From a virus (taxonomy: Duplodnaviria; Heunggongvirae; Uroviricota; Caudoviricetes), in the IMG/VR virus record IMGVR_UViG_2740892211_000019: 37,093 nucleotides of DNA; one strand, written 5' to 3'. Shown here in pieces: positions 2,031 to 37,093 of the stretch. The notes below the pieces were generated by a model. The model saw only the letters and a list, made by a program, of their open reading frames with translations. It ran no database searches and was not told the DNA's origin. Every line of letters starts with the position of its first letter. Positions within the stretch are counted from its first letter, which is position 1. Made by a program: the position numbers and the translations under genes.

Positions 2031-2034
2031 TCGT

Positions 2035-2457: not shown

Positions 2458-2463
2458 ATCAAA

Positions 2464-2655: not shown

Positions 2656-2792
2656 GAAAACCTCTTAACAATTTAATTAAACATAAGCCAGGACCTGAAC
2701 CGGCCAGTCCAAGTCCTAGACACACAAAAAAAATACCACAAATCAATACAAGGTGACACGAGTACACCTTACCGAAGGTACAGAGTTTTAAT

Positions 2793-3143: not shown

Positions 3144-3153
3144 CAGGTGCTTT

Positions 3154-3432: not shown

Positions 3433-3443
3433 AGGGCGTTGCG

Positions 3444-3686
3444 ATGGGCAAAGAATATAAAACTCTCATTAATAAAGCACTTGAGCGTTTTTATTTTCGC
3501 TTAAGTGCATCAGGCGCTCATGCTGAACGTGCAGCCCGTGACTCATTGACCAGGGCAATCCGGAGTCTGTATGACGTGGCTTTTTACGCTGATGATCTGG
3601 ATGCACTTAACGAACTTTCCGAGCTGATCTGTGCCGCAGAATGCGGGGAACATATTGAACCGTATAAGCTGGGGAATATTGCATGA
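3444..3686 (+). CDS. Hypothetical early protein
   Basis: ATG at 3444 (MGKEYKTLINK...) within ORF 3393..3686. Confidence 0.5.
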   Translation: MGKEYKTLINKALERFYFRLSASGAHAERAARDSLTRAIRSLYDVAFYADDLDALNELSELICAAECGEHIEPYKLGNIA

Positions 3687-3796
3687 GTATATTTATCTCA
3701 TGGCTTGTTCTGATTATTTCGGTGGTCTGCGCCATTGGGATTATGCGAATTATTAATTCAGTGAAAAAGATCGAGCGTTTTTTCTCTGATGAATAA
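3683..3796 (+). CDS. Small hydrophobic peptide (37 aa, single predicted TM helix), translationally coupled
   Basis: ATGA start/stop overlap with the preceding ORF at 3683..3686. Hand translation gives MSIFISWLVLIISVVCAIGIMRIINSVKKIERFFSDE. Below the 60-aa cutoff of the ORF track. Confidence 0.35.
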   Translation: MSIFISWLVLIISVVCAIGIMRIINSVKKIERFFSDE

Positions 3797-3888
3797 CGAT
3801 ACAAATAAAACATCAAATTAAATAAGAAAACGTGAAAACCATCCGTATTAACGGAGGTATTCGCACACGTAAATAATGGAGATATAAA

Positions 3889-4155
3889 ATGAACGCAAAA
3901 GAAGAAGGCATTATCAACACATTAAAAAAAATATCAGAAGCGGAAGATGAAATGGCTAAAGATGCCGTGAAGCGTAGCCAACATATGGCAGCACTTCACG
4001 CACTGACCATCGCAAAAATCACCGCTGACGCAGCCAAAATTATTGAGGAACAGGGCAAAGAAATCGACACTCTTAAAACACAGTCAACAGTTGCAGCCAT
4101 GAATCCGTCCAGCATTGGACGCCGCATTTACATTCTTGGTTCGGCAAATACCTGA
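3889..4155 (+). CDS. Hypothetical early protein
   Basis: ORF track; RBS GGAG about 8 nt upstream of the ATG. Confidence 0.5.
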   Translation: MNAKEEGIINTLKKISEAEDEMAKDAVKRSQHMAALHALTIAKITADAAKIIEEQGKEIDTLKTQSTVAAMNPSSIGRRIYILGSANT

Positions 4156-6048: not shown

Positions 6049-8871
6049 ATGACGGCAGAGTACATCAGGGACTGGCAACAACCGCGCCACGCAGTGGGAC
6101 GTGAAGGAACGGGGATCCCCGTTCCTGAATCCGCGCTTTCCTCCTGGCTGGATGCCTACCGGGCAGAGAACGAGCGCCGCCAGGAAATGGCTGATGCGGC
6201 GTTCTCCGCCACGCCGCTGGGCAACCTGATTAATAAAAGCCTGGATGCACAGGAAAAACAGGACAAAACCATCACACTGGCAGGAGACGCCAGAAAACAG
6301 GTACGCGGTGCGGTGGATGAAGCCATGGCCTCGCTGCGCCTGCTGCCGTCCTATCTGCGCGATCCGCTTATTCGCCACCTCTCCTTCCTGCGCAAAAAAC
6401 AGGAAGCCGATCGCCGGAAAGGCAAAAAGAGCTGGCAGGCTGAACGCTACGCGCGCGGAACCCTGCGCAAAATATTCGAACGTCTGGACCGCACCGACCA
6501 CCGCTGGCTGACACCGGGTTATCGCTCCCTTGCCGGACGCGAACGCCTGGATGATTTGCTTTACCTGCCGCAGCTCAACAAGCACCAGATACAGACGCTG
6601 GCCACCATGACGGCGGCGATGTTCAGCAGCACCTTCGAAAAACTCTGCGATGGCTTTGGCGCGACTGATGGCGAGCTGACCATGGATGTAACGCTGAAGG
6701 CGTATCAGATGCTGGCCCGCATGGCGTTACACCTGCACGCCATGCCTCCGCATTATGACGCACTGACAACAGACAAAGACCGGAGGAACGAACCGGACAC
6801 GGAGCTGCTGCCGGGCGCAATCCTTCGCCTGACCTGTGCGGAATGGTGGAAACGCAAACTGTGGCTGTTACGTTGCGAGTGGCGGGAAGAACAACTCCGC
6901 GCCGCCTGTCTGGTTTCCAGAAAAACATCGCCCTATCTGAGCCAGGACGCGTTAAGCGAGTTTCGCGCACAGCGCGAGAAAACACGCGATTTCCTGAAAA
7001 GTTTCATGCTGGAAAACGAAGACGGGTTCACGATTGATCTCGAGACGGTGTATTACGCGGGAGTAAGTAACCCGGTTCACCGTAAGGCAGAAATGATGGC
7101 CACCATGAAGGGGCTGGAACTTCTGGCCGAAGCCCGTGGCGACAAAGCGGTGTTTCTGACTGTCACCTGCCCGTCAAAATACCACGCCACAACAGAGAAC
7201 GGTCATCCGAATCCCAAATGGAACGGGGCCACCATGCGCGACTCCAGCGATTACCTGGTTAACACGTTTTTTGCGGCGGTCCGCAAGAAACTGAACCGCG
7301 ACGGCCTGCGCTGGTATGGCATCCGCACGGTGGAGCCTCACCATGACGGCACCGTGCACTGGCATATGATGGTCTTTGCTCATCCGGAAGAAATCGACAC
7401 CATTGTGTCCCACACCCGCGATATTGCCATTCAGGAAGATCGTCACGAGCTGGGTGATGATATTACCCCACGCTTTAAGGCGGAGTACGTCGACGGCTCA
7501 AAAGGCACACCGACCAGCTACATCGCCACCTACATCGGGAAAAACCTGGACAGCCGTGCCGTGGATGGCATCGACCCGAAAACGGGCAAGCCACGCGTTG
7601 ACCACGAAACCGGAAAATCAATGGCCGAGAGCGTGGAACGCGCCATCGGCTGGGCGCGCCTTCACCGGGTCCGCCAGTTCCAGTTCTTTGGTATCCCCTC
7701 CCGTCAGGTGTGGCGTGAACTGCGCCGCCTTGCCAGCCAGATGGCTCGCAACCCGGAAGGACCGCAACGGCTGAAGGATGACGCAATGGACGCGGTTCTT
7801 GCTGCCGCTGATGCCGGATGTTTTGCCACCTACATAGAGAAACAGGGCGGCGTACTTGTTCCACGCAAGGACTACCTGATTCGCACCGCCTACGACCTCG
7901 CCGATGAGCTGAACGATTACGGTGAACAGAGCGTACAGATTTACGGGATCTGGTCACCGCTCATCGGGGAGTCTTCCCGCGTATGCACGCATCCGGACAA
8001 CTGGAAGCTGGTAAGACGCAAACCGGAAGCGGAAGACAGCGCCCGCGAAAATGGTTTTGACCTTCAGGGCGGCCCTGCCGCACCTTGGACTCGTGGCAAT
8101 AACTGTCCCCGTGTACAGGAAACGGACAACAACGGGACAGAACAGCCGGAAGAACGGCCAGCACCGTGGCCGCAGCTTCCTGACGGCGTTGACGTGAACG
8201 AATGGATGCGCTCACTGAAACGGCACGAACGCCGGGCGCTGATGCGTTCGCTGCGTGACAAACAGGCAAAAAACAGCAGTGATGAAATGCAGAGCTGGAC
8301 ACAGAGCCGCAAACAGCAGCGGCCTTTGCCTGATAACCACGAATTACTCGCTAAAGAATGGCGGGAATCTGCCGAATCTCTCGGCCTGCATATCGGTGAA
8401 CAGCAGATGCAGCACCTGTTACGGGGCGGCAGCCTGTACGTTGACGGCAGCATCATTGCACCGCAGGGATTTGAAATTGTACGCAAACCGGATACCCGCC
8501 CGGACAGCCGAATCACGCAGCTCTGGCAGCGCCTGAGCCGTAATCACGGCGTAAGCAGCACGGAGATCCGCCATAACCCGGTCGCCAGCTATCTGGAACA
8601 GCTGGGGGCATCAGACCCCGAAGCCGCCGCACGTCTGGCATCCACACTTCAGCAGGACCAGAACACCATGAACCCCCCCGTTACCGTGCTTTCTGACATG
8701 CTGCGCGCCATCCGCGACGCAGAGCACGCACAGAGAATCAGTGAAACCACTGAACGTGCCCGCCGCAAAGCAGACCTGCTGCGGGGTGGCCTGACCAGTG
8801 GAAACAAAAAACAGACAGAAACGGGATTCACAAATCCCGTAAATGAGCAAAAAACGCGCCGCGATATATGA
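6049..8871 (+). CDS. A: Replication initiation endonuclease (P2 gpA-like rolling-circle initiator), 940 aa
   Basis: ORF track. Contains the HUH-type metal-binding motif (HHDGTVHWHMMVF) and a tyrosine-bearing block (TSYIATYIGKN) typical of P2 A-family initiators; position matches P2 synteny. Longer than my recollection of P2 gpA. Confidence 0.9.
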   Translation: MTAEYIRDWQQPRHAVGREGTGIPVPESALSSWLDAYRAENERRQEMADAAFSATPLGNLINKSLDAQEKQDKTITLAGDARKQVRGAVDEAMASLRLLPSYLRDPLIRHLSFLRKKQEADRRKGKKSWQAERYARGTLRKIFERLDRTDHRWLTPGYRSLAGRERLDDLLYLPQLNKHQIQTLATMTAAMFSSTFEKLCDGFGATDGELTMDVTLKAYQMLARMALHLHAMPPHYDALTTDKDRRNEPDTELLPGAILRLTCAEWWKRKLWLLRCEWREEQLRAACLVSRKTSPYLSQDALSEFRAQREKTRDFLKSFMLENEDGFTIDLETVYYAGVSNPVHRKAEMMATMKGLELLAEARGDKAVFLTVTCPSKYHATTENGHPNPKWNGATMRDSSDYLVNTFFAAVRKKLNRDGLRWYGIRTVEPHHDGTVHWHMMVFAHPEEIDTIVSHTRDIAIQEDRHELGDDITPRFKAEYVDGSKGTPTSYIATYIGKNLDSRAVDGIDPKTGKPRVDHETGKSMAESVERAIGWARLHRVRQFQFFGIPSRQVWRELRRLASQMARNPEGPQRLKDDAMDAVLAAADAGCFATYIEKQGGVLVPRKDYLIRTAYDLADELNDYGEQSVQIYGIWSPLIGESSRVCTHPDNWKLVRRKPEAEDSARENGFDLQGGPAAPWTRGNNCPRVQETDNNGTEQPEERPAPWPQLPDGVDVNEWMRSLKRHERRALMRSLRDKQAKNSSDEMQSWTQSRKQQRPLPDNHELLAKEWRESAESLGLHIGEQQMQHLLRGGSLYVDGSIIAPQGFEIVRKPDTRPDSRITQLWQRLSRNHGVSSTEIRHNPVASYLEQLGASDPEAAARLASTLQQDQNTMNPPVTVLSDMLRAIRDAEHAQRISETTERARRKADLLRGGLTSGNKKQTETGFTNPVNEQKTRRDI

Positions 8872-8918
8872 AGCGCACACAAAACAGGCAAAAACGGGAT
8901 TTCAGAATCCCGTAAACG
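8818..8918. repeat. Two copies of a ~28-bp palindromic unit (AAACGGGATT-N5-AATCCCGTAAA) about 73 bp apart, directly upstream of parM
   Basis: Copy 1 at 8818..8848 lies inside the last codons of gpA; copy 2 at 8891..8918 overlaps a possible -35/-10 for parM. Read directly from the sequence. Confidence 0.5.
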
Positions 8919-8947
8919 ATTAATTAATCAACATAAGGAAAAGCGAC

Positions 8948-9907
8948 ATGAAAATTTGTATCGACGACGGCTCCACCAACATCAAGCTGGCATGGACTGA
9001 GAATGGCGAACGCCGCAACGCCATCAGCCCGAACAGCTTCAAGTCGGAATGGTCTGCGCCGTTCGGTGGCATGCAGCCCGCGAACTACATGCTTGATGGC
9101 GTGCGCTATGGTTTTGATCCGGTCAGCGATCGCTTTGTCCAGACGACCGACACGCAATACCAGTACAGCGATGTGAATGTAATCGCCATTCATCACGCGC
9201 TGGTCAAATCAGGCATCACGCCACAGGAGGTGGATGTGGTTGTCACCCTGCCACTGAGCGAGTATTTCGACACAAACGCACAGCCGGACATGGCCAACAT
9301 CAACCGCAAAAAAGCGAACGTTATGCGCCCGGTGGAGTACCAGAACGGCGAAGCATTCACTATCCGTAACGTGCGGGTTATGCCTGAATCCATTCCGGCT
9401 GGCTTTAAAGCACTGGCTGACATGAGTCCGTTTGAATCCCTGCTGATTGTGGATTTAGGCGGAACCACGCTGGATGTGGCAAAGGTTCAGGGGCAACTGG
9501 CAGGTATCAGCCAGGTGTTTTGCGATCCACACGTAGGCGTCTCCCTGATGGCCGGTGCCGTGCTGTCGGTGATGGCCGCTAACGGTATGCGTACCAGTCA
9601 CCACATCGCCAATACCATTATCGAACATCGCCATGATGAAGCCTGGTTGCGCCAACACATCCACAATGACGCGCATTACGCCAGCCTGATGGCGGTTATT
9701 CGTGAAAAGGAAGAAACACTGAAACAACGCGTGATCCGCGCGCTGGCGGGTTTTTCGGGTTACGGGCGGGTGATGGTTGTCGGTGGCGGGGCGGAGATTG
9801 TGGCACCCGCTATCCGCGAAGCCTGCGGAGTTAATGCGACTTTCATCGCGGACGGGGTGCCACAGTTTGCTCTGGTTAATGGGCTGTACGCAATGGACAA
9901 GGAGTAA
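8948..9907 (+). CDS. parM: ParM/StbA-family actin-like ATPase (type II plasmid partition NTPase)
   Basis: Translation carries the ParM signature blocks as I recall them from plasmid R1 StbA/ParM: CIDDGSTNIKLAW, YSDVNVIAIHHAL, VMPESIPAGF, LLIVDLGGTTLDVAKV, VMVVGGGAE. RBS AAGGAAAAG before the ATG at 8948. Confidence 0.85.
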   Translation: MKICIDDGSTNIKLAWTENGERRNAISPNSFKSEWSAPFGGMQPANYMLDGVRYGFDPVSDRFVQTTDTQYQYSDVNVIAIHHALVKSGITPQEVDVVVTLPLSEYFDTNAQPDMANINRKKANVMRPVEYQNGEAFTIRNVRVMPESIPAGFKALADMSPFESLLIVDLGGTTLDVAKVQGQLAGISQVFCDPHVGVSLMAGAVLSVMAANGMRTSHHIANTIIEHRHDEAWLRQHIHNDAHYASLMAVIREKEETLKQRVIRALAGFSGYGRVMVVGGGAEIVAPAIREACGVNATFIADGVPQFALVNGLYAMDKE

Positions 9908-9911
9908 ACCA

Positions 9912-10226
9912 ATGACGACACCAACCAGACGGATAAGTTTCTATCTGAAGCCAGTCGCCGTCAATAGTGAACGGGAGGCGTGTAATTACCTCGACAGCCT
10001 GCCAGCCTCTGAACGCAGCCGCGCGCAACGCGCGGCCTTTCTGGCCGGGCTGGCACTCATAAAACGCGATCCTGCATTTGCCTATTGGTTGGCCGAATGG
10101 CCGGAAGAAGGAGCTGCGCCAGCCAAGAATAATATTCAGAGTAAATATGCCAGCACACCTGCCACCGGAAGCAATCACAGCACTAGCGAGATAAGAAAGA
10201 ACATTCAGTCATTTTTCCCAGAGTGA
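9912..10226 (+). CDS. parR: ParR/StbB-like centromere-binding protein (ribbon-helix-helix)
   Basis: ATG at 9912 with AAGGAG upstream, 4 nt after the parM stop. N-terminal beta-strand-like RISFYLKPV, then LDSLPASERSRAQRAAFLAGLAL, which closely matches my recollection of the R1 ParR core. Confidence 0.7.
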   Translation: MTTPTRRISFYLKPVAVNSEREACNYLDSLPASERSRAQRAAFLAGLALIKRDPAFAYWLAEWPEEGAAPAKNNIQSKYASTPATGSNHSTSEIRKNIQSFFPE

Positions 10227-19097: not shown

Positions 19098-19239
19098 CCC
19101 ACCCACATGGGGAAACCTCGGAATATGGGGCGACCGCCTTCTGGATGCACTGGAAACCTGTAACGCGGATAAACGGGCCATTGCTGAACTGGATAAGAGA
19201 ATAGCCGAACTGACACACCAGACGGGAGTAACACAATGA
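18928..19239 (+). CDS. Rz1-like o-spanin lipoprotein (LysC analogue), in the +1 frame overlapping Rz
   Basis: Signal peptide with lipobox LLTGC and a proline-rich mature region. Start may instead be the internal ATG at 18958. Confidence 0.55.
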   Translation: MNSYATILQKMNAPTLCLTLVLLTGCAGTQNAPGPAPSVRLIPQTLTMPVTPPPFPDPPTWGNLGIWGDRLLDALETCNADKRAIAELDKRIAELTHQTGVTQ

Positions 19240-21113
19240 CCAGTAAGAACTTTGCACTGATTACAGCCATGACACAGGCTGAACTGACTCAAAAGGTGAA
19301 TGAACATCTTGCGAAAGGGTGGCATCTTCAGGGGGAGACGCGGGTTGCCTACGAACCCGGCACCCCGTGGTATCTAATGCAGGCAATGGTGGCCGATGGC
19401 ACTACAGACATCTCACCTGATTCCCCCCAGCACGGCAGCGTGCCGGAGTGGTATTACGTGGTGGTACTTGCTGGTCAATCCAATGCCATGTCATATGGTG
19501 AGGGAATGCCGCTGCCGGATTCTTACGATGCGCCCCACCCACGCATTAAGCAACTGGCCCGTCGCAACACAGTGACTCCCGGTGGTAAAGCATGCGCATT
19601 TAACGACATCATTCCGGCAGACCACTGCCTGCATGATGTTCAGGATATGAGCGCACTGAATCACCCGAATGCAGACCTGAGCAAAGGGCAGTATGGCTGT
19701 GTCGGACAGGGCTTGCATATTGCCAAACGCCTGTTGCCTTACATTCCACAGAATGCCGGGATTTTACTGGTTCCATGCTGTCGTGGTGGTTCGGCATTCA
19801 CCCAGGGCGCGGAGGGGACATTCAGCGAGTCCACAGGAGCCAGTCAGGATTCGGCTCGCTGGGGTGTGGGTAAACCTTTATATCAGGACCTGATTTTGCG
19901 CACGAAGGCCGCATTGCAGAAAAACCCAAAAAACATGCTGCTGGCCGTATGCTGGATGCAGGGCGAATTTGACATGAGCGCCGCTACGTACTCACAGCAA
20001 CCTCCGCTGTTTACGGCCATGCTGAAACAGTTTCGTGCGGACATTACCGAGTTTAACACGCAGTGTCATGGAGGCAGAGCGGCAAGTGTGCCATGGATTT
20101 GTGGTGACACGACGTATTACTGGAAAAACACCTACGGCACGCAGTACGACACCATTTACGGGGCGTACAAAAACAGGGAGAGCGACAACGTTTTCTTTGT
20201 GCCGTTCCTGACCGATGGTAGTGGCAACAATACCTCCACCAACGCACCAACGGAAGATCCGGATGCTGCAAGTGAGGGATATTACGGTTCGGCATCCCGA
20301 ACGAACAAAAACTGGGTATCATCAAATCGCCAGACGCATTTCAGCTCATGGGCGCGTCGTGGCATTATTCCCGATCGTATGGCAACCGCTATTCTGAACG
20401 TAGCCGGTCGCACCTTAGCCTTCATCAGTGGTAAGGCACCGGAAATCAAACCCTCGCCCGGCGGCGACACGCCATCGGGGCCGTCTGAAGATGCATCCGT
20501 ACGCACAATCTCCCTGTTGCCGACAGCCGGAGATGCTGCTGCGCAGGGCTGGAGCATTAAGAATGGCGGAATTCAGTTGTCAGAGGGTGTATTTAAGATC
20601 ACCAAGCAGAGCAATAAAACCTGGTCCCTGACGCGCCCGGTGGATGACGCAGTCTCCCTGCTGACACGGGGTGGCAGACTGAGCTGTAAGTTTCGACTGT
20701 CAGGCGCACTGACCAACAATCAGTTCGGTCTGGGAATTTATCTGTATACCGATGTAGCGTTACCTGACGTCGTGGCGATGACCGGGACTGGTAACCCGTT
20801 CCTGATGTCGTTCTTCACCCAGACCACAGACGGCAAACTGAATCTGATGCATCACAAGAAAGCAGGAAACACAAAGTTGGGCGAGTTCGGGAATTACAGT
20901 AACGACTGGCAGACGCTGGAGCTGGTGTTCACCGCCGGCAGTGCCACGGTTACTCCGAAACTGAATGGAGTGGCTGGCCCGGCATTCCAGGTCATAAAAG
21001 ACAGTCTGACACTGGGGCTGAATGCGCTGACGTTAACTGATATCACTAAAAATGCCGCGTACGGCGTCGATATCGGCAGCCTGGTGCTGGAAATCAATAA
21101 TCCCGCAGCATAA
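19236..21113 (+). CDS. NanS-p-like sialate O-acetylesterase (N-terminal DUF1737-like domain, SGNH/SASA esterase domain, C-terminal domain of unknown function)
   Basis: VVVLAGQSNAMSYGEG is the GQSN nucleophile block of sialate O-acetylesterases. N-terminus (ALITAMTQAELTQKVNEHLAKGWHLQGE) resembles the DUF1737 leader of prophage NanS-p proteins. Inserted between the lysis cassette and gpR. Confidence 0.7.
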   Translation: MTSKNFALITAMTQAELTQKVNEHLAKGWHLQGETRVAYEPGTPWYLMQAMVADGTTDISPDSPQHGSVPEWYYVVVLAGQSNAMSYGEGMPLPDSYDAPHPRIKQLARRNTVTPGGKACAFNDIIPADHCLHDVQDMSALNHPNADLSKGQYGCVGQGLHIAKRLLPYIPQNAGILLVPCCRGGSAFTQGAEGTFSESTGASQDSARWGVGKPLYQDLILRTKAALQKNPKNMLLAVCWMQGEFDMSAATYSQQPPLFTAMLKQFRADITEFNTQCHGGRAASVPWICGDTTYYWKNTYGTQYDTIYGAYKNRESDNVFFVPFLTDGSGNNTSTNAPTEDPDAASEGYYGSASRTNKNWVSSNRQTHFSSWARRGIIPDRMATAILNVAGRTLAFISGKAPEIKPSPGGDTPSGPSEDASVRTISLLPTAGDAAAQGWSIKNGGIQLSEGVFKITKQSNKTWSLTRPVDDAVSLLTRGGRLSCKFRLSGALTNNQFGLGIYLYTDVALPDVVAMTGTGNPFLMSFFTQTTDGKLNLMHHKKAGNTKLGEFGNYSNDWQTLELVFTAGSATVTPKLNGVAGPAFQVIKDSLTLGLNALTLTDITKNAAYGVDIGSLVLEINNPAA

Positions 21114-24057: not shown

Positions 24058-24658
24058 TTCACTGTTACCACCATCAGCCAGCAATTTCATGCGTTGTGCC
24101 GAAGCCGTCGGAACACGCATTACAGACATTCCGGTAGACCTCAACACGCTGTGGTCGCCGGACACCTGCCCGGTGCATCTGCTGCCTTATCTCGCCTGGG
24201 CGTTTTCCGTTGACCGCTGGGATCGCAACTGGCCGGAAGAGACAAAGCGACAGGTGATTCGTGATGCATGGCTGACACACCGACACAAAGGGACCATCAG
24301 CGCACTGCGAAGAGCCGTGGAGCCTCTCGGCTACCTGATTGAAGTAAAGGAGTGGTGGCAACTCAACGAGGAGCCAGGAACATTTCGCATTGTTGTCGGA
24401 GTACTTGATCAGGGCATCACCGATGAAATGTATCAGGAACTTGAGCGCCTTATTGCGGATGCAAAACCAGTAAGTCGCCATCTGACGGGGCTGGCGATCA
24501 GCCTGAGTGTGAACGGAAAGATTTTCGTTGGTACGGGATGCTATCACGGCGATGCCCTGACGGTTTATCCCTACACCCCGGAGTCTATTATTGTCGAAGG
24601 GGATTATTTCCCTGCTCCGGCCATTCATTTAATTGATAATCTGAGAGTAAACGCATGA
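24050..24658 (+). CDS. I: Baseplate / tail protein I (P2 gpI-like)
   Basis: ATG at 24050 ([11 protein letters not shown]...) after GAAGGTGGG, overlapping the J stop. Confidence 0.8.
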
Positions 24659-26670
24659 CAGCGAAATACTACGCCATTCTGACTAATCAGGGCGCGGAAC
24701 GACTGGCTAACGCGACGATGCTCGGCAGTAAGCTGAATTTGACGCAAATGGCCGTTGGTGATGCAAATGGTGTGTTACCAACACCAAACCCTGCACAAAC
24801 AAAACTGATTAACCAGAAACGCATTGCACCGCTGAATCTTCTGAATGTTGACCCTAACAATCAGAGCCAGATTATTGCGGAGCAAATCATCCCTGAAGAC
24901 GAGGGAGGATTCTGGATCCGTGAGATTGGTCTTTATGATGATAAAGGTGTACTCATTGCGGTGGCAAACTGCCCGGAAACGTACAAACCGCAGTTGCAGG
25001 AAGGCAGTGGACGCACCCAGACTATCCGCATGATTCTGGTTGTCACGAACACCAAAGCCATCACGCTGAAAATCGACCCGTCTGTGGTTCTGGCAACCCG
25101 CAAATATGTGGATGATAAAATCTCAAAGCACGAGCAGTCACGACGTCACCCGGACGCCTCGCTGACCGCAAAAGGCTTTGTTCAACTCAGTAGCGCCACT
25201 AACAGCGATTCTGAAACGCTGGCTGCAACGCCGAAAGCGGTTAAGGCCGCGTATGACCTTGCTAACGCAAAATATACCGCTCAGGACGCCACGACGGCAC
25301 GAAAAGGCATTGTCCAGCTCAGTAGCGCCACCAACAGCGATTCAGAAACGCTGGCGGCAACACCAAAGGCGGTAAAGGCAGCCTATGACCTTGCTAACGG
25401 GAAATATACCGCACAGGACGCCACGACGGCACAAAAAGGAATTGTCCAGCTCAGTAGTGCAACCAACAGCACATCTGAAACGCTTGCTGCAACACCGAAA
25501 GCAGTGAAAGCAGCTAATGACAATGCGAATGGTCGGGTACCTTCTGCCCGTAAGGTGAATGGTAAGGCGCTTTCGGCGGATATAACACTGACGCCGAAAG
25601 ATATTGGTACGCTTAACTCAACAACAATGTCATTCAGCGGTGGTGCTGGTTGGTTCAAATTAGCAACGGTAACCATGCCACAGGCGAGTTCTGTTGTTTC
25701 AATTACGTTGATTGGTGGCGCTGGATTTAACGTCGGTTCACCTCAACAGGCAGGTATATCTGAACTTGTTTTGCGTGCAGGTAATGGTAATCCGAAGGGG
25801 ATTACTGGTGCTTTATGGCAGCGCACATCGACAGGGTTTACAAATTTTGCCTGGGTCAATACATCTGGTGATACTTACGATATTTACGTTGCAATCGGAA
25901 ATTATGCGACTGGTGTAAATATTCAATGGGATTATACCAGTAATGCCAGCGTGACGATTCATACGTCACCAGCATATTCTGCTAATAAGCCGGAAGGGTT
26001 AACGGACGGTACAGTTTATTCACTCTATACGCCATCAGAGCAGTTTTATCCGCCTGGCGCACCAATCCCGTGGCCATCGGATACCGTTCCGTCTGGTTAT
26101 GCCCTGATGCAGGGGCAGACTTTTGACAAATCTGCATACCCAAAACTTGCAGCGGCTTATCCGTCAGGCGTGATCCCTGATATGCGTGGCTGGACGATTA
26201 AGGGCAAACCCGCCAGTGGCCGGGCCGTATTGTCTCAGGAACAGGACGGCATTAAATCGCACACCCACAGCGCCAGCGCATCCAGTACGGATTTGGGTAC
26301 GAAAACCACATCGTCGTTTGATTACGGGACGAAAACAACCTCACTATTTGACTATGGGACCAAAACTACCAGTAACGACGGGAGTCACACGCATTCAATA
26401 CCAACATCAGATGGTGCAAACCAGGGGGGGAAAATTCCACTGACATCTGGGCGTCTGGCAACTCAATATACATCAGCAACAACAGGTTCCTCTGGCTCAC
26501 ATTCTCATACTGTAGGTATTGGTTCTCATCAGCACACTGTCGGTATTGGTGCACACACGCACTCCGTTGCGATTGGCTCACATGGACACACCATCACCGT
26601 TAACGCTGCTGGTAACGCGGAAAACACCGTCAAAAACATCGCATTTAACTATATTGTGAGGCTTGCATAA
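24655..26670 (+). CDS. H: Tail fibre protein H
   Basis: ORF track, 671 aa. Contains three tandem 44-aa repeats and a C-terminal His-rich block (HTHS ... [34 protein letters not shown]) typical of phage fibre tips. Confidence 0.85.
25171..25566 (+). repeat. Three in-frame tandem direct repeats of 132 bp (44 aa) inside tail fibre gene H
   Basis: Nucleotide copies are phased at 25201, 25333 and 25465 (AACAGC... anchor); protein unit [29 protein letters not shown]. Confidence 0.8.
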
Positions 26671-27248
26671 TGGCATTCAGAATGAGTGAACAATCACGGA
26701 CCATAAAAATTTATAATCTACTGACCGGAACCAATGAGTTTATTGGTGAAGGTGATGCATACATTCCACCTCATACAGGTCTGCCAGCAAACAGTACCGA
26801 TATTGCCCCGCCAGATATTCCGGCTGGCTTCGTGGCCGTTTTCAACAGTGATGAGGCATCGTGGCATCTCGTTGAAGACCATCGGGGTAAAACGGTTTAT
26901 GACGTGGCATCAGGGGACTCGTTATTTATTTCTGAACTCGGTCCATTACCGGAAAATGTTACCTGGTTGTCGCCGTATGGAGAGTATCAGAAGTGGAACG
27001 GCACATCCTGGGGGAAAGATGCAGAAGCAGAAAAACTGTTTCGGATAAGGGAGGCGGAAGAAACAAAAAACAGCCTGATGCAGGTAGCCAGTGAGCATAT
27101 TGCACCACTTCAGGATGCTATAGATTTAGATATTGCGACGGAGGAAGAGACATCGTTACTGGCTGCATGGAAGACATATCGAGTATTGTTGCATCGTGTT
27201 GATACAACAGTAGCAGCAGATATTGAGTGGCCAGTCGCCCCACAATAA
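26670..27248 (+). CDS. G: Tail fibre assembly chaperone G
   Basis: ORF track, 192 aa; start overlaps the H stop; synteny. Confidence 0.8.
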
Positions 27249-27256
27249 AAAGAAAA

Positions 27257-27282
27257 AGCCATCGATAGAAATATCGATGGCT
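27257..27282. terminator. Bidirectional intrinsic terminator (AGCCATCGATA-gaaa-TATCGATGGCT)
   Basis: Perfect 11-bp stem. The T-tract is strong on the minus strand (TTTTCTTTTTATT after the stem) and weaker on the plus strand. Separates G from the convergent acetyltransferase gene. Confidence 0.65.
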
Positions 27283-27291
27283 TTATGTACT

Positions 27292-27897
27292 CTATTTATA
27301 CAATACAGCACCGCTCTTTTTAGTTATATATGTGCAGTTCGATGGTATATCTTTATTTATAAAAGACATTGCACCTATTTTTACATTATCCCCAATTTTA
27401 CGGGATAATCCAATGATGCAACAATTAGCTCCGATATCAACGTTGCTACCAATTTTTACTCTTGAACCAGGTATGTCACCATCTATCTGTCCAATGGTCG
27501 TATTCTGTCGTAACACCAGATTTTCACCAGCATCAACAGCAAAATGAACAACAATTCCAGCATGATGGGGAATTGTTAACCCTTTTCCAATATTTGCGCC
27601 CAATCCAATTTCGCAACCAAATTTGTTAATTATTTTACTGTTTAACTTCTTGGCTGCTTTCTTATGTAATTTATTACCATTAATATACATTTCGTTAGCC
27701 AACCGCCACCAGAAAAGGAAATTCCTGTTACGCTGCTTTTTCTCTCTTAAAAGCCTCCAGATATCCATACGTTTCCGCCGAATTACTTCATGTTTCCAGA
27801 AGTTTTTTAAATTAGTAGAGTTCCCAAATAAAACAAAGTGAATTGCCATTAGGTAAGACAGCACGATAATCTCCTTAATTATTATTTCAGACCACAC
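27292..27897 (-). CDS. Hexapeptide-repeat (left-handed beta-helix) acetyltransferase, CysE/WcaB-like
   Basis: C-terminal half is built of hexapeptide repeats (GCEIGLGANIGKGLTI ... VKIGSNVDIGANCCIIG ... IGDNVKIGAMSFI). Visibly AT-rich gene at the P2 Z/fun hotspot position. Start codon uncertain: GTG at 27897, or ATG at 27849 or 27768. Confidence 0.7.
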   Translation of the reverse strand: MWSEIIIKEIIVLSYLMAIHFVLFGNSTNLKNFWKHEVIRRKRMDIWRLLREKKQRNRNFLFWWRLANEMYINGNKLHKKAAKKLNSKIINKFGCEIGLGANIGKGLTIPHHAGIVVHFAVDAGENLVLRQNTTIGQIDGDIPGSRVKIGSNVDIGANCCIIGLSRKIGDNVKIGAMSFINKDIPSNCTYITKKSGAVLYK

Positions 27898-28020
27898 ATG
27901 TTATAAGGTTAAGAGATTATAAAATCCTGTTGTTTATTATTCAAAAACAATTTTCTGAGAAGGACATACAACAGCAAGTCGCCAGTCACCTTCATCAGGA
28001 AATTGGCGACATACGTTAAA

Positions 28021-28515
28021 TCAGAGCAGCCCCTTAACTGAGCTGGCCGCGCTATTAAGGGATGATGTCACCTTATCTTTGAAGCCGGACAACATATCGC
28101 TGAACGATGAGGATTGCAGGCGCTCCCGCAAATCCTCATCACAGCGTTCAAGAGTCAGTGAAAATTCTATCTTTTTCGCCTTACCGTAGCGATCAAACTC
28201 GGAACGGGTCGTATTCGTTTCAGTCAGTACATACATGCCGTAAATCTGCCCGACACCATCAATCAGAGGCCAGGGCCGTCCTGTATATGCCTGCGTGGTC
28301 AGCAATGAAAGCGACACTTCGCCACCTGTAATTTCAGGATAAAGCACGCCGGAAAGCACAATGCGATCATCACCTGCACCGATATACTGCCAGCTTGCTG
28401 AACGGTTAACGCGTTCATTTTTCACATGCCGCCAGCTTTTGTTTTGCTGTAACTGCTGATGCGGCAATGTGCGCAGCTCAAAAACAAACATGCCGTAGAT
28501 CATCATCATGACCAT
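28021..28515 (-). CDS. U: Tail protein U (P2 gpU-like)
   Basis: ORF track, 164 aa; follows the tape-measure gene on the minus strand. Confidence 0.85.
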   Translation of the reverse strand: MVMMMIYGMFVFELRTLPHQQLQQNKSWRHVKNERVNRSASWQYIGAGDDRIVLSGVLYPEITGGEVSLSLLTTQAYTGRPWPLIDGVGQIYGMYVLTETNTTRSEFDRYGKAKKIEFSLTLERCDEDLRERLQSSSFSDMLSGFKDKVTSSLNSAASSVKGLL

Positions 28516-28521
28516 GACTCC

Positions 28522-31362
28522 TCAATCTTTATCGTAAAAACTGCCACGCCCGGCACGGGCGCGCCGTTCCATCTCTGCCCTGACCATTTCACCGACCAGT
28601 TTCGCCAGTTCGCGGGGATTCTGCGTAACAACGTTATGCAGATGAACATGAATTTCACCGCAAAATCCGGAGACAGCAGGCTCCCGGTTACGGGAAGTTG
28701 CAGGAACTGATGCCACTGGCGATCGTATGGCCTCCGCCACCGGGCGGGAGCTGGCCGCAACAACAGGGACCAGCGCCGGAGGCAGCGGAGCCGAGACCAC
28801 GGGTGTGATATTAATTGCGGGGGGCTTACTGACCTGCGCAATCTTCTGCTCCTGCCACTCCCCACGAACAGCAAGTGCGCGGGGCAGGTTCTTAAAGACA
28901 ATATCGCCGGGGCCAATGCGTTTTTTCGTCTCATCAACCAGCTTACCTGTGTTATCAGCAATTTTGCTGAGTCTGCGTAGCGTCCCGGTATTGCTGTCTG
29001 TGAGCGGTTTGTTGTCTTTGGGTTTATCACCTCCGGTGCCATTGCCATTTTCCACAGGCTTCGGCGGATTGATTTTCGCCAGGTCCCCCTGAAGCAAGGC
29101 AACCTTGTCCTGAAGAATGGCCGCACGCTGTGCGTCTTCGATTTTCTTGCGCGCCCTTTCAGCTTCATCCGGAAGGACGCCAAGTTTTTCAAGTATCCAC
29201 GCCAGCGTATCCAGTAGCATTTTTGCAGGTGTCAGAACAAGCTGTAACGCACCGCCAAGAACGTTACCGAATATCTCGCCAGCACTGGTACATTTATCCA
29301 GCGTTTCCTTACTGGACTCCATCGGTGACAGCAGCGATTTAAACCAGTTAAACACCTGGCTGATCCCGCTTCCGATTGCGTCAAAAACAGGGCCAAACCG
29401 TTCAAAGGTTTCGCGCAACGGAGCCAGCCGTTCCATAATCCCACTGAACACCCCTGCATAAAACGCCTTGATGGGTTCCCAGTATTTCCAGATGAGAACC
29501 GCCGCAGCCACAAACGCAGCAGCAATCAATCCGACCGGACTGAACAGCGCCCCGATAGCGCCTCCCAGTAACGAAATGGAACCCGTCACCATTCCCCATA
29601 ATGCAGGCAGAACCCTGACAACATTCAATGATCCGGTCAGGAGGGAAAAACCAAGACGCAGTTTTGCCAGTGGGCCAGCAAGCACACCAATAGCCAGCGA
29701 CAACGAGCCTATGGTTGCAGTCATTGCCAGCAGAGCACCGCCTGCAACCAGTAGCTGGCGCGTCAGTGCCGGATGGGCCTGCGCCAGCGCCGTCACCTTC
29801 GATACCACCCGCGTGAGCCACTGCGTGACAGAACGCAGCGGACCGTCAATCAGATCTGCAATGCGGATGCGCAACCCTTCCCATGCACTGCCGAGTGATT
29901 TCAGATCGCCGTCAAGGTTGTTGGCCATAACCTTTGCTGTGCGTTCAGCCTCACCGCGCGCGCCTTCAAGTTCTTTTCTCAGTTTGGGTAAGGAGCCGTC
30001 ACCTGCCGCATCAACGAGGGCCATAAATGATGTGAAAGCCTCTTCTCCGGCAATGTCCTTAAAGAACGATACCCGGTCAACTTCCCCGTATTTGCGGGTG
30101 GCTTTATAAAGGTCAGCCAGCAGATCTTCCATCGGGCGCATTTTGCCGTTCGCGTCAGAGACGGACACGCCCAGCTCTTTCAGCGCCTCTGCTGCTGCCT
30201 TTGGCGGTGATGCCAGACGAGCCAGGCTGGCACGCATTGCCGTCCCGGCATCACTCCCTCTGATACCCATATTCGCCAGCACGCCAGCCATCGCTGCGGC
30301 CTGCTCCAGCGATATTCCCAGCTTACCCGCCACCGGACCGGCATATTTCATGGTTTCGCCCAGTGCGCGAAGGTCAGTGTTGGTACGGGTAAACGCTGCA
30401 GTGAGTGTGTCACCGACCCGGTCCATCTGGTCAGCAGAAAGGCCGAACTGCGTCAGGATATTTGAGCCAATATCCGCCGTCTCGCCGAGATCCATACCGC
30501 CAGCCGTTGCCATGCTCAACACGCCGGGAAGCGCAGCCTGAATGGCCTGCGGTGTGAAGCCAGCCATTGCAAGAAATGCCTGCCCACTGGCGGCATCGCC
30601 TGCGGTGAACTGCGTTTCAGAGCCAAGTTTTAACGCCTGCTCACGCAGCGCCTTAAACTGCGGGCTGTTCTGGTCGATTCGCGTCAGCGCCTGAACGCGG
30701 GACATCTCTTTCCCGAACCCGATTGCGGGCTGCAAAAAACGCCCGGCAGCATAGCCGCCCGCCGCTGCCGCACCAATTGCCAGTACACCACCTGTTTTCA
30801 GTTTTCCCGCTGTTTCCTGCGCACGCGAATACCGCTCACGCGCCCGCGTTACACGCGCAAGCGCCTGCCGTTCGCGTTCAAGCTGGTTGTTGTACTGTTC
30901 GGTGCGCCTGATGGCCTGTTGAATGGTGTTATCGCTGCCTGTCAGGGAAATGCCGTGGCGTTTCAGCTCTCCGCCAAGCTCCCGCATTTTCTGAATTTCC
31001 CGTGTGCGCGATTCATTCAGGCGTTCAAGCCGGGTGCTTAACTGCTGCATCAGCTTTTGTTGCTTTTCGCTGAGCACTGTACCCGTGCGTTGTAACTGAT
31101 TAAGGGCGTTAAGCTGGCGTCGTGCTTTCACGATACCCGCATCCGCTTTACTGACAGCGTCGCGGGCGCGCTCAAATGAACGCGCCTGACGCTCGAGATT
31201 TTTGATCGCCCCCTGCGTTCGCTGGATGGAGTCACCAAACTGCCCCATCAGGCGGCGGGCGTTTTCGGCAGGCCGGGTCAGCCTGTCAACGGCGCTGAAA
31301 GCGACCCGGATATCAAGAGTCTTCATTGTCTGCATTCCCGCTGCGAAGTGCCGCCCGCTCAC
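28522..31362 (-). CDS. T: Tail tape measure protein (P2 gpT-like)
   Basis: ORF track, 946 aa; coiled-coil-rich N-terminal part and Gly/Ala-rich hydrophobic segments; synteny. Confidence 0.9.
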   Translation of the reverse strand: MSGRHFAAGMQTMKTLDIRVAFSAVDRLTRPAENARRLMGQFGDSIQRTQGAIKNLERQARSFERARDAVSKADAGIVKARRQLNALNQLQRTGTVLSEKQQKLMQQLSTRLERLNESRTREIQKMRELGGELKRHGISLTGSDNTIQQAIRRTEQYNNQLERERQALARVTRARERYSRAQETAGKLKTGGVLAIGAAAAGGYAAGRFLQPAIGFGKEMSRVQALTRIDQNSPQFKALREQALKLGSETQFTAGDAASGQAFLAMAGFTPQAIQAALPGVLSMATAGGMDLGETADIGSNILTQFGLSADQMDRVGDTLTAAFTRTNTDLRALGETMKYAGPVAGKLGISLEQAAAMAGVLANMGIRGSDAGTAMRASLARLASPPKAAAEALKELGVSVSDANGKMRPMEDLLADLYKATRKYGEVDRVSFFKDIAGEEAFTSFMALVDAAGDGSLPKLRKELEGARGEAERTAKVMANNLDGDLKSLGSAWEGLRIRIADLIDGPLRSVTQWLTRVVSKVTALAQAHPALTRQLLVAGGALLAMTATIGSLSLAIGVLAGPLAKLRLGFSLLTGSLNVVRVLPALWGMVTGSISLLGGAIGALFSPVGLIAAAFVAAAVLIWKYWEPIKAFYAGVFSGIMERLAPLRETFERFGPVFDAIGSGISQVFNWFKSLLSPMESSKETLDKCTSAGEIFGNVLGGALQLVLTPAKMLLDTLAWILEKLGVLPDEAERARKKIEDAQRAAILQDKVALLQGDLAKINPPKPVENGNGTGGDKPKDNKPLTDSNTGTLRRLSKIADNTGKLVDETKKRIGPGDIVFKNLPRALAVRGEWQEQKIAQVSKPPAINITPVVSAPLPPALVPVVAASSRPVAEAIRSPVASVPATSRNREPAVSGFCGEIHVHLHNVVTQNPRELAKLVGEMVRAEMERRARAGRGSFYDKD

Positions 31363-31842
31363 GCCAGCTAACCACTTCGCCGGGCGTCATCATGAAGATT
31401 TCGGCGGGCGACCAGTTAAAAATAACGGCAATATCTGCCACAAAGTCTTCTATATGCTCAAAGCACACAACCGTGATCAGGCTTCCGTCGCCTGTTCGTT
31501 CTTCCCGCCAGAGTCCGCACCGCTCAAAAAATTTACGGCAACCACACATAACTGAATAAAGTCACGGGATGCCATTTTTTTGATCGTCACTTCATCCAGT
31601 CGCGGTGATGTCACGCGTGACAGCAGCGTAAACATGGATTCCGCTTTCAGATTCAGCACATCAGACAACGACAAATCTCGCAGAGATCCAGCCTGCTCAA
31701 TAGCTCCGGTGATCTCCACATACGTGATTTTTTCGCCGCCTCGCTCAATTGGTTGGGTAAGTTTTACGCCACGCTCACTGGTTTCTTTCACAGTGTCAGC
31801 AACGACCGTGTTTTCGGTATCGATGTTTTTCGTCTCTTTCAT
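31313..31842 (-). CDS. E': Tail assembly chaperone E+E' (-1 programmed frameshift product)
   Basis: Slippery heptamer T_TTT_TTG on the minus strand (plus coordinates 31525..31531) falls on the AAT-TTT-TTG codons of E. The -1 frame is open from there to 31313 and overlaps the start of T, as in P2. Confidence 0.6.
31477..31842 (-). CDS. E: Tail assembly chaperone E (P2 gpE-like)
   Basis: ORF track, 121 aa; RBS AAGGAG on the minus strand; ends in ...AVNFLSGADSGG.... Confidence 0.8.
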   Translation of the reverse strand: MKETKNIDTENTVVADTVKETSERGVKLTQPIERGGEKITYVEITGAIEQAGSLRDLSLSDVLNLKAESMFTLLSRVTSPRLDEVTIKKMASRDFIQLCVVAVNFLSGADSGGKNEQATEA

Positions 31843-31896
31843 CAGGAAACTCCTTTCAGTCAGAGGCGACGCACTGCGCCGCCTGCATATTACTTA

Positions 31897-32409
31897 TCAG
31901 CCAAGCCCAAGCGCGGAACGGATGCGATCGGGCACAATGTCTTTGCCGTCCTTCCGGTAAATGAAATTCAGCAGGTCAATCTCCCACAACGGGCGATCGT
32001 TAACACTCAGCTTGTAGTAGGTGTTTTTAATGGCGTAAGTGTGTGATGTGGCTTCGCCCTGTTTGGCTTCCCCCATATCAATTTCCGTCACACGTCCGCG
32101 CATTTCGACTTCATACAGGTCGCTTTCTGCATCGGTGTAGTATTCACCCGCAAAACGCAGCAGCGTGCCGTCAATCGTGCCGCCATACTTCAGGAACAGC
32201 TCACGAACTGCGCCCCCCATGACAAAGCTCGCATCAAGCGCGGAGTCGTCCAGACCGAGATCAATACTTACCGCCCCCATCATGCCACCACCACGATAGC
32301 TGTCGGTTTTGCGCGTCAGTTTAGGCAAGGTGACGGACGTCACCTTACCCACTTCGTTTTCACCATCCACAAACAGCGTAAAAAAGCGAAGATGTTTTGG
32401 TACAGCCAT
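31897..32409 (-). CDS. FII: Tail tube protein (P2 gpFII-like)
   Basis: ORF track, 170 aa; synteny after the sheath gene. Confidence 0.9.
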   Translation of the reverse strand: MAVPKHLRFFTLFVDGENEVGKVTSVTLPKLTRKTDSYRGGGMMGAVSIDLGLDDSALDASFVMGGAVRELFLKYGGTIDGTLLRFAGEYYTDAESDLYEVEMRGRVTEIDMGEAKQGEATSHTYAIKNTYYKLSVNDRPLWEIDLLNFIYRKDGKDIVPDRIRSALGLG

Positions 32410-33593
32410 CAGGCACCTCCCAGCACCGCAAATGCGGGACCAAAGAATTCATCAGTAAACGACTGGTAAAGCTCCATGTCTTCCAGCGGAGGAACGGGCG
32501 TATATTTGTAGCGAATACGCACACGCCCCTGACGTAAATCCGTGGTGCTGTTATCCACCACGTCATACCAGCACGACGCCCCAATCAGTTTCCCGGCAGT
32601 AACCAGTGAATCCAGTTTTGCCCTGATGGCACTGATAACATCCTTCACGTTCGCAGGCGTCAGTGGACTGTCGATGGTTTCAAACTGCGCTTCCGCAATT
32701 GAATCAGCCAGCACCTGTGCGGTTCGGGTATACACCTCAAAGATGTAGGCGTTCGTTTCCGGTGTGCGGTTGCCCCAGAAGCGGAACCCGTTGCGACGAA
32801 TAATGGTCGTGATTTCTTTGTTGTTGAGGCTGTTGGCATCACTGTCTTCGGCCTGCAACGACCAGAACACATGCCTGGACATCCCCAGCACATTTTTAAC
32901 CGGAACGTTGGACAGCGATTTGTGCCAGCCCTGCTCATGGTCAATGTACGCACGAAGGCCGCACGCATAGGCAGGCGCGGGGAACGTTTCGTTTTTGCCA
33001 CTTTTCGGGTTGTAGGCGATGAAGTCCGGCCATAAGAGCATCACCTCACGTTCGTTGAATTTCTGGCGGTAGGTAATCGCCTCAGCCATCGTGTTACAGC
33101 CGTGACATGAGGCATACACAAACGCGCGCAGTTTACCCGCAATCACGCACAGGGATTTTGTTACCGCCTCCGTGTCCAGCTCCGGCGCGGCCAGAATACG
33201 CGGACGGTATCCGATGCTTTCATCCTGCTCTGCAACAAGCAGCGCATACATCCCCGTATAGCTGCCGTCAGATTCAGAACCACCGATAACCAGTTGATCC
33301 TGCGTTTTTCCGTCTTCTTCTTTGTGTTCAGCCACGCGAACGACGATCACCTTTGTGCTCACCTGGTCTGCGATGGCCTTAAGCGCACGATAAAGCGTCC
33401 CCGTTGTCCCGCATTTTCCCAGCACGTCATTGACGCGGGTCAGCAGTGTGGGCTTGTTCAGCGGGAACAGCTTCGCGTCCGCATCATCCGCCGTTGCCAC
33501 GATACCGATAACGCTGGAATCAACATCGTTAATCGCTGTTACCAGGTCGGTATTTTCCGTAACACGGGCACCATGAAAACGAGTTTCACTCAT
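32409..33593 (-). CDS. FI: Contractile tail sheath protein (P2 gpFI-like)
   Basis: ORF track, 394 aa; motifs such as TLIRRNGFRFWGNRT and YKYTPVPPLE match the P2 sheath as I recall it. Confidence 0.9.
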   Translation of the reverse strand: MSETRFHGARVTENTDLVTAINDVDSSVIGIVATADDADAKLFPLNKPTLLTRVNDVLGKCGTTGTLYRALKAIADQVSTKVIVVRVAEHKEEDGKTQDQLVIGGSESDGSYTGMYALLVAEQDESIGYRPRILAAPELDTEAVTKSLCVIAGKLRAFVYASCHGCNTMAEAITYRQKFNEREVMLLWPDFIAYNPKSGKNETFPAPAYACGLRAYIDHEQGWHKSLSNVPVKNVLGMSRHVFWSLQAEDSDANSLNNKEITTIIRRNGFRFWGNRTPETNAYIFEVYTRTAQVLADSIAEAQFETIDSPLTPANVKDVISAIRAKLDSLVTAGKLIGASCWYDVVDNSTTDLRQGRVRIRYKYTPVPPLEDMELYQSFTDEFFGPAFAVLGGA

Positions 33594-33750
33594 AGCTTCA
33601 GCCCCTTGTATCCGTTAAATGATTCGGCAACAATCATCACCCACCACGCGCGTAATCTCACCCCTGCGCCGTTCTCCCGCCACGGCGACAACAAAAAGCA
33701 GTAACCCCCTCCGCACGCACATGCGACCATGCCGCACAGGGAGGGAGCAG

Positions 33751-35800: not shown

Positions 35801-37093
<1,293 letters not shown>

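Follow-up and report, generated by a model that had tools for sequence, protein, structure and literature searches.

The stretch of DNA studied here (the window) comprises the 37,093 nucleotides of IMG/VR virus record IMGVR_UViG_2740892211_000019, and its source is a P2-like prophage of Escherichia coli. The region of interest, positions 27249-28020 (772 bp), is the exact gap between the stops of the tail-fibre assembly gene tfa and the tail gene gpU, and holds one intact open reading frame (ORF), located on the minus strand, for a small acyltransferase of the left-handed beta-helix (LbH) type. The GC content of 0.348 was the minimum of all 772-bp windows in the 37 kb (mean 0.528, standard deviation 0.05), with 0.03% of windows being as low, while the flanking 2 kb gave values of 0.485 and 0.541 and the third codon positions of the acetyltransferase gene a value of 0.325. 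The observation is thus real and well above chance, and the windowed calculation bears out the AT-rich, foreign cargo described in the initial annotation. The features of the region and its two borders are as follows.

27292-27864, minus strand: coding sequence of 573 nt (190 aa) for a CysE/WcaB-like LbH O-acetyltransferase, assigned from the ORF, NCBIfam, PHROG 2154 and an AlphaFold2 (AF2) model.
27871-27876, minus strand: Shine-Dalgarno sequence AAGGAG, 6 nt upstream of the GTG start, read from the sequence.
27916-27944, minus strand: predicted sigma-70-like promoter, TTGAAT, 17-nt spacer, TATAAT, 10/12 matches in a consensus scan.
27255-27284, minus strand: predicted intrinsic terminator hairpin, with a perfect 13-bp stem and a 4-nt loop, then TTCTTTTTAT on the minus strand, from folding and a repeat search.
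27978-28010, minus strand: hairpin just downstream of the gpU stop, between gpU and the cargo promoter, with a fold energy of -22 kcal/mol and z = -3.75.
26670-27248, plus strand: tfa, the equivalent of P2 gpG, left border of the slot and convergent with the cargo (Pfam Caudo_TAP, 6e-40).
28021-28515, minus strand: gpU, right border of the slot and last gene of an inverted FI-FII-E-E'-T-U tail block (Pfam Phage_P2_GpU, 5.5e-39).

The ORF as listed starts at 27897. The GTG at 27864 was the best start, and it gives the same 573-nt coding sequence as the annotation by the Prokaryotic Genome Annotation Pipeline in E. coli 55989, one of 13 complete genomes in which the 772-bp region is 100% identical. 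The ratio of nonsynonymous to synonymous substitutions (dN/dS) of the gene against its homologues was 0.04-0.19, indicative of purifying selection. The consensus scan recovered six promoter-like sites in the region, with 5.0 expected from shuffles. The terminator hairpin sits between the stop codons of tfa and the acetyltransferase gene, which are arranged tail to tail, and is common to both genes. Its folding energies on the two strands were -19.8 and -21.3 kcal/mol (z = -6.9 and -6.0), and the hairpin is therefore structurally bidirectional, as had been claimed of a strong bidirectional terminator; a good T-run is nevertheless present only on the minus, or acetyltransferase, strand. The second hairpin, at 27978-28010, may, as a weak terminator, insulate the cargo from the late tail operon. 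It has no strong T-run, and read-through from the tail operon could therefore occur. No tandem or phase-variable repeats were found in 27000-28300, and the only Rfam matches around the gene, to Qrr and ncr1575, were below threshold on an AT-rich strand and were taken as chance. The combination of a predicted promoter and terminator, an atypical composition, a position between conserved phage genes and an absence from sister phages marks the region, as far as its predicted signals go, as a moron, a promoter-gene-terminator unit that is complete in itself, foreign in composition and placed at a variable slot.

The layout around the slot departs from that of P2. The late genes V, W, J, I and H (24655-26670), and then tfa, all lie on the plus strand; beyond the slot gpU, the tape measure gene T, E'/E, FII and FI lie on the minus strand, and D is again on the plus strand. 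Because the block from FI to U is inverted, the slot is G|U rather than G|FI, and the tail-sheath gene FI, which had been named as the neighbour of the cargo, is replaced in that place by gpU. For the same reason the acetyltransferase gene is co-oriented with gpU-T-E-FII-FI, and its description as oppositely oriented holds with respect to H and G/tfa only. The inverted block occupies 28021-33593 (minus strand), with D on the plus strand at 33619, and this layout was common to all sister prophages examined, in some of which a DNA invertase adjoins gpU. In addition, an Rfam match to IS009 (RF02111) at 27013-27211 on the plus strand (175.7 bits, gathering score 117) lies wholly inside the tfa coding sequence; the IS009 'sRNA' family is probably a model of a conserved part of prophage tfa genes and not of a separate RNA.

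The proposal that the site is a hotspot was upheld. Sister prophages with 94-97% identical gpU DNA hold other cargo at exactly the same tfa|gpU site, and a P2-like prophage of Buttiauxella with the canonical gene order has a homologue of 49% identity in precisely the gap between G and FI. One alternative cargo, present in an ST131 strain, a pig isolate and an O18 strain, consists of an alternative fibre tip that is invertible and comes with a tfa of its own and a DNA invertase. A second, present in an O104:H21 strain, is a 392-aa GT9 heptosyltransferase-like gene with a GC content of 0.33, found in 49 E. coli genomes. This protein scored 26.9 against Pfam PF01075 (gathering score 22), its only NCBIfam matches were weak ones to lipopolysaccharide (LPS) heptosyltransferases, and it was 36% identical (E = 1e-66) to a GT9 protein of Orbaceae that is encoded in a co-directional cluster of the form GT9-SAT-SAT, where SAT denotes the 'serine acetyltransferase' of database naming. 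Finally, in two phage contigs of ~45 kb a YibB/HtrL-family gene (NCBIfam 359.8, cut-off 342) lies between a 62%-identical homologue of the acetyltransferase and tfa; in E. coli K-12, htrL and the waa region are linked. These genes are located as follows.

Locus L172, 3744-4922, E. coli O104:H21 prophage: GT9 cargo.
Loci L156, 1591-2445, and L157, 3753-4610, IMG/VR phage contigs: YibB/HtrL-family gene.

The nearest phage-database matches of the YibB gene were two 174-kb 'Campylobacter phage' records (53% identity), and a tblastn search of GenBank phages with the GT9 and YibB cargo returned no useful matches. The slot is a real hotspot, and its alternative cargo is glycan- or fibre-related. An accessory-gene and defence hotspot has been recognised within the P2 tail genes (PMC13586616; PMC9122126), in surveys that make no mention of acetyltransferases.

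The protein itself is assigned, by profiles and by its modelled structure, to the LbH (hexapeptide-repeat) acyltransferase superfamily and to its CysE/WcaB type, in agreement with the small LbH acyltransferase first proposed. The NCBIfam profiles ranked EpsC first (7e-21; 74.6 bits, cut-off 150), followed by CysE (1.5e-16) and WcaB (4e-14; 51.6 bits, cut-off 194.65, and 52.3 bits, cut-off 196), each falling far under its curated cut-off. The CysE equivalog test failed, with scores of 60.9 against 210.65 for TIGR01172 and 36 against 397 for NF008349, and the LacA and Maa profiles scored 25.8 and 20.9 bits (cut-offs 347 and 314). Among the PHROGs the match was to family 2154 (3e-86), which is of unknown function. 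Pfam Hexapep scored 23.6 bits, just under the gathering score of 27, and homologues carry PF00132. An AF2 model built from 34 homologues (predicted local distance difference test score 82, predicted template modelling score 0.81) comprised five N-terminal helices (residues 2-82) and then a beta-helix, with short beta-strands spanning residues 90-175. The best Foldseek matches of this model in the Protein Data Bank (PDB) were all serine acetyltransferases (E = 2e-6 to 7e-4, 16-28% identity, probability 1.0), and the family profile reached PDB serine acetyltransferases at E = 3e-24. A hydrophobic N-terminus had also been noted. There is indeed a hydrophobic stretch of 12 residues, missing in many relatives, but with a maximum 19-residue Kyte-Doolittle mean of 1.1 it forms no transmembrane helix; an N-terminal membrane anchor or signal peptide was rejected by hydropathy and by the model, where the stretch is the first of the five N-terminal helices.

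The active site was mapped by adding E. coli CysE, the sequence of which is identical to PDB 1T3D over 273 residues, to the family alignment. The catalytic residues, the loss of which would have counted against the initial annotation, were kept: CysE His158 corresponds to His100, present in 33 of the 34 family members, and its acidic partner Asp143 corresponds to Glu85, with Asp or Glu in 34/34. The residues that characterise the serine enzyme were lost. CysE Asp92, Asp157, Glu166, Arg192 and His193 are replaced by Asn46, Pro99, Phe108, Ser134 and Arg135, in columns that vary within the family; the roles of these residues in L-serine binding are taken from the Neisseria gonorrhoeae enzyme, where they are Asp96, Asp161, Glu170, Arg196 and His197 (PMC8786284). 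The N-terminal helical domain has ~82 residues, some 60 fewer than the ~140 of the hexamer-forming domain of CysE, and the C-terminal CysK-binding tail, which in CysE terminates in Ile, is absent, the protein ending with GAVLYK ~12 residues past the beta-helix. Motifs invariant in the family are FWWRLAN, RQNTTIG, IGDNVDIGAN and IGAMSF. With the L-serine-binding residues lost, the protein would not make O-acetylserine, and the name 'serine acetyltransferase' is a misnomer because these five other serine-site residues are gone even though the His/acid pair is kept. The protein appears from its residues to be an active O-acetyltransferase distinct from serine acetyltransferase, and it is very likely that the region is an active acetyltransferase moron. 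Its product would be a soluble, acetyl-CoA-dependent O-acetyltransferase of the CysE/WcaB branch, probably trimeric.

The region was found in 530 of the 5426 complete E. coli genomes (~10%), 510 copies being full length. Copies with at least 96% nucleotide identity were present in O157:H7, O26:H11, O111:H8, O103:H2, O55:H7 and O104:H4 backgrounds. The carriers, about one in ten genomes, thus include the main Shiga toxin-producing and enterohaemorrhagic E. coli lineages, O104:H4 and P1-like phage-plasmids, and everywhere the gene is named 'serine acetyltransferase'. Sixty-six copies were on plasmid records, and those inspected were ~92-102 kb, the size of P1 phage-plasmids, with tfa alongside. 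The P1-like phages JL22, in which the gene is named 'sacF', and Ro157c2YLVW carry the same tfa-acetyltransferase module. In P1-like phage-plasmids the acetyltransferase gene lies in the middle of the invertible C segment, between two convergent fibre-assembly genes (JL22 6071-9810), and is therefore carried along when the host-range switch flips. Other paralogues in E. coli include one at a prophage end adjoining hok and one on a plasmid near bfp-like (bundle-forming-pilus) genes. A 50%-identical paralogue was also observed on E. coli plasmid or contig records of ~113-127 kb (loci L182-L185, 5001-5594), a few kb after a run of prepilin-peptidase and SLT genes and amid IS66 elements and EspF/IpaB-like fragments; these records look like the adherence-factor (EAF) type of virulence plasmid of enteropathogenic E. 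coli. The JL22 copy and a homologue in Citrobacter rodentium phage phiNP have been mentioned merely as cargo of unknown purpose (PMC9603915; PMC6456863). A literature search on prophage hexapeptide acetyltransferases, tfa-adjacent morons, LPS-core O-acetyltransferases and CP-933T found nothing specific. The gene has been annotated and noticed before, yet it is misnamed and uncharacterised: a prophage moron for a glycan-type acetyltransferase.

The association with tfa recurred in other phages. In IMG/VR, 80 loci encoding relatives were surveyed, 75 of them with enough flanking sequence, and a Caudo_TAP tfa gene was convergent within 54 bp in 67/75, many of these being near-identical copies. 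The spacing between the two genes was 43-44 nt in close copies (84-100% identical) from IMG/VR and E. coli, and from -36 to 54 nt in distant ones. After dereplication, tfa-adjacent members fell into at least five separate clades of a neighbour-joining tree, interleaved with chromosomal members. Divergent relatives (35-70% identity) were tail to tail with tfa in many different myoviruses, and the paired homologues included those of phiNP (45%), Hafnia phage yong2 (35%), E. coli phage 613R2 (35%), Gilliamella phages (44-45%) and a Salmonella prophage. An exception is the P2-like phage ESSI2_ev040, where the homologue is beside an integrase and an Abi-family gene. The acetyltransferase and tfa did not diverge strictly together: the Spearman correlation of the two divergences was 0.33, for non-independent pairs, and in phage 613R2 a 78%-identical tfa lies beside a 36%-identical acetyltransferase. 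The weak correlation looks like repeated capture or shuffling at the site and not like one ancient module.

Chromosomal contexts were taken from a dataset of one genome per species (80 loci). The long waa operon of Leminorella grimontii ends, after WaaB, WaaI, WaaY and WaaZ, with a 47%-identical homologue in the same direction; WaaL follows, convergent on the opposite strand. Pantoea and Mixta homologues stand at the upstream edge of a waaQ-waaG-waaP operon. In Orbaceae and Gilliamella the co-directional clusters take the form GT9-SAT-SAT in one case and SAT-GT9 in the other.

The proposal that best accommodates these data is that the moron is a lysogenic-conversion gene whose product would O-acetylate a conserved envelope glycan, probably the LPS core, and we give it a probability of about 45%. 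Since the enzyme is soluble, its acceptor must be reachable from the cytoplasm, and since near-identical copies occur in many O serogroups, that acceptor must be conserved across serogroups; the two requirements together argue against a conversion specific to an O-antigen or capsule. The GT9 and YibB genes in the slot, the GT9-acetyltransferase operons of Orbaceae and the membership of the Leminorella waa operon point to an envelope glycan built by heptosyltransferase-like enzymes, and the simplest candidate would be lipid A-core, on the cytoplasmic face of the inner membrane. Taken separately, the odds lean somewhat towards an acceptor that is a glycan, while its identity as the LPS core specifically is put forward only tentatively. 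Most likely the enzyme would work in the cytoplasm, on an envelope-glycan intermediate that is conserved; the best candidate is the LPS core oligosaccharide, or another heptose-linked glycan, in mid-assembly on the cytoplasmic side of the inner membrane. With an O-acetyl group added, the surface met by tail fibres and host factors would be altered, which would amount to lysogenic conversion and possibly also to receptor masking or superinfection exclusion. Fibres of P2, P1, Mu and the Stf/T4 type read LPS core or OmpC, and for that reason a core-editing gene that travels beside a fibre module would make sense as a means of receptor masking or exclusion. It is from sequence that we infer this function, as well as expression in the lysogen and an effect on phage adsorption.

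Several observations weigh on the other side. Around 70 of the 80 homologue loci were in heterogeneous contexts with no obvious tie to LPS, mostly as orphans. In Mixta the start of a homologue overlaps the end of uidB, giving an arrangement (uidA-uidB-SAT) that resembles a lacZYA-like sugar-utilisation operon, eight Rahnella species share the synteny POT transporter-SAT-GGDEF, and Halopseudomonas homologues are within NeuB/CMP-sugar (nonulosonic-acid) clusters, which likewise count as non-LPS contexts. GT9 enzymes also include protein (autotransporter) heptosyltransferases, and the GT9 link is therefore no proof of LPS. Adjacency to tfa is weak evidence for receptor modification because that location, downstream of tail-fibre genes, is a hotspot for morons in general, and the loose correlation between acetyltransferase and tfa divergence counts in the same direction. 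Finally, the searchable literature yielded no precedent for an enzyme of this sort that O-acetylates the LPS core of E. coli.

The sugar-operon and transporter contexts lend themselves to a different account, in which the protein would be a cytoplasmic small-molecule acetyltransferase of the LacA/Maa type, through which a free sugar, glycoside or xenobiotic is detoxified or exported to the metabolic or resistance benefit of the lysogen. The homologues in Mixta and in the eight Rahnella species come directly after transporters, a GPH transporter is nearby in Citrobacter, and an orphan gene on many mobile elements fits an acceptor that needs no partner enzymes. However, sequence and fold are nearest to CysE/WcaB/EpsC and not to LacA/Maa/XAT, and this account leaves unexplained the repeated tail-to-tail pairing with tfa and the presence of GT9 and YibB in the slot. 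It is considered unlikely.

Acetylation of O-antigen or capsule had been the leading suggestion of the initial annotation. Surface-glycan acetylation does stay the best functional class, and serotype conversion, through an acetyl group placed on the repeat unit of a specific O-antigen or capsule, would be in keeping with the WcaB-like and EpsC-like enzymes, which are polysaccharide acetyltransferases, and with the Halopseudomonas NeuB/CMP-sugar clusters. A capsule acetyltransferase of the LbH type carried by a prophage has a precedent in NeuO of CUS-3. Against serotype conversion, near-identical copies reside in at least six unrelated O serogroups, a cytoplasmic enzyme would need to recognise each different repeat unit linked to undecaprenyl pyrophosphate, and NeuO-like phase-variable repeats are lacking in 27000-28300. 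Conversion specific to a serogroup is thus a doubtful explanation, and the first reading of the locus was right about gene class and hotspot and probably wrong about the specific acceptor.

The same reading had offered a single-gene defence determinant, for which no direct support emerged. Here the enzyme would provide intracellular anti-phage defence or exclusion, for example by acetylating a phage or host component, and would leave the receptor unchanged. The gene is AT-rich, mobile and an orphan, the ESSI2_ev040 homologue has an integrase and an Abi-family gene for neighbours, and the accessory hotspot in the P2 tail region is a known site of defence genes (PMC13586616). Nevertheless, PADLOC returned zero families at E <= 1, and the other cargo genes of the slot relate to glycans or fibres and do not resemble defence genes. 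We know of no LbH acetyltransferase defence system, and this explanation is judged improbable. Least credible of all is a genuine serine O-acetyltransferase that boosts O-acetylserine and cysteine supply or CysB signalling, since the database name, the fold and the kept catalytic pair that would favour it are set against the TIGR01172 score, the five replaced and family-variable active-site residues, the short N-terminal domain and the missing CysK-binding tail described above.

An esterase is also encoded in the prophage. A 625-aa ORF at 19236-21113 on the plus strand, between the lysis genes and tail gene R, comprises DUF1737, SASA (PF03629, 2e-11) and DUF6645 domains, an architecture that we take to be that of the NanS-p sialate O-acetylesterases of Shiga toxin phages. 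Genes for an O-acetylesterase and an O-acetyltransferase therefore coexist in this one prophage. The esterase was present in the ST131 sister prophage, which is without the acetyltransferase, and absent from the GT9-bearing O104:H21 sister, and the two genes are therefore not strictly coupled; a coupling was unsupported by these two sister prophages. It would be highly speculative to suppose an 'acetyl lock and key', in which a receptor of the LPS-core type is acetylated against competing phages and a late NanS-p-like esterase strips the acetyl groups for the adsorption of the phage's own progeny or for their escape from cell debris, and, more widely, in which acetyltransferase, GT9 and YibB are interchangeable occupants of a 'receptor-editing' slot that moves together with tail-fibre modules among P2-like, P1-like and other myoviruses.

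Elsewhere in the window, ParM-type actin-like segregation genes were present inside the prophage (8948-10226, plus strand), and a second stretch of low GC content (0.41) was observed in the early region at 2000-4000, with a DUF4761 gene and unannotated ORFs. The end of the window holds serS (35801-37093, minus strand); the right boundary of the prophage is therefore near 35.3-35.8 kb, at an insertion site unlike that of strain 55989.

If acetylation of the LPS core, or of another conserved glycan, is the true function, the gene would be a widespread and overlooked lysogenic-conversion factor for phage susceptibility, with a bearing on phage therapy and typing, and interactions with serum or antimicrobial peptides and core-directed antibodies could be affected. 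The logic of serotype conversion, as seen in membrane acetylases specific for O-antigens, would then also cover a cytoplasmic enzyme with a conserved acceptor. Given how often the gene is paired with tfa, the idea of a 'receptor-binding module plus receptor-editing gene' can be tested directly.

Among known systems, CysE (E. coli 1T3D and N. gonorrhoeae 6WYE) gives the best structural and profile matches and shares the N-terminal helical domain followed by the LbH, together with the His/acid pair. The cargo protein differs from it in the shorter N-terminus, in RQNTTIG replacing ILQSVTLGG, and in the loss of the serine-site residues and the CysK tail. WcaB (colanic acid) and EpsC are similar in being small (160-200 aa) soluble enzymes with a CysE-like beta-helix, and some relatives of the cargo protein are in polysaccharide or LPS clusters. 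The cargo gene, in contrast, is a mobile-element orphan outside any exopolysaccharide cluster, and its product belongs to a distinct family, PHROG 2154, under every curated cut-off. NeuO, the polysialic-acid O-acetyltransferase of the E. coli K1 prophage CUS-3, is a cytoplasmic hexapeptide-repeat enzyme of lysogenic conversion; it belongs to the NodL/LacA-like subfamily, is phase-variable through 5' heptanucleotide repeats and finds its acceptor only in K1 strains. The two have in common a prophage-borne hexapeptide-repeat acetyltransferase and, as proposed here, acetylation of a glycan in the cytoplasm, but the cargo gene is without tandem repeats in 27000-28300 and its LacA/Maa profile scores are far under the cut-offs.

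The acyltransferase-3 enzymes Oac, OafA and GtrC are polytopic membrane proteins with ~10 transmembrane segments that act after export. As O-antigen acetylases of serotype-converting phages (Sf6, P22-like) they acetylate LPS (PMC3851460). The resemblance is confined to the proposed role, that of a prophage gene that would acetylate LPS and alter recognition by phages or the immune system, the cargo protein having no transmembrane segment and an unrelated fold.

Morons beside receptor-binding genes include cor of N15 and HK022 and llp of T5. With these, and with the Z/fun slot of P2, the cargo shares its position downstream of tail-fibre and assembly genes, its autonomous organisation, its foreign GC content and its swappable nature. 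The likeness to P2 Z/fun is one of positional equivalence; unlike in P2, the slot borders gpU, the FI-U block being inverted.

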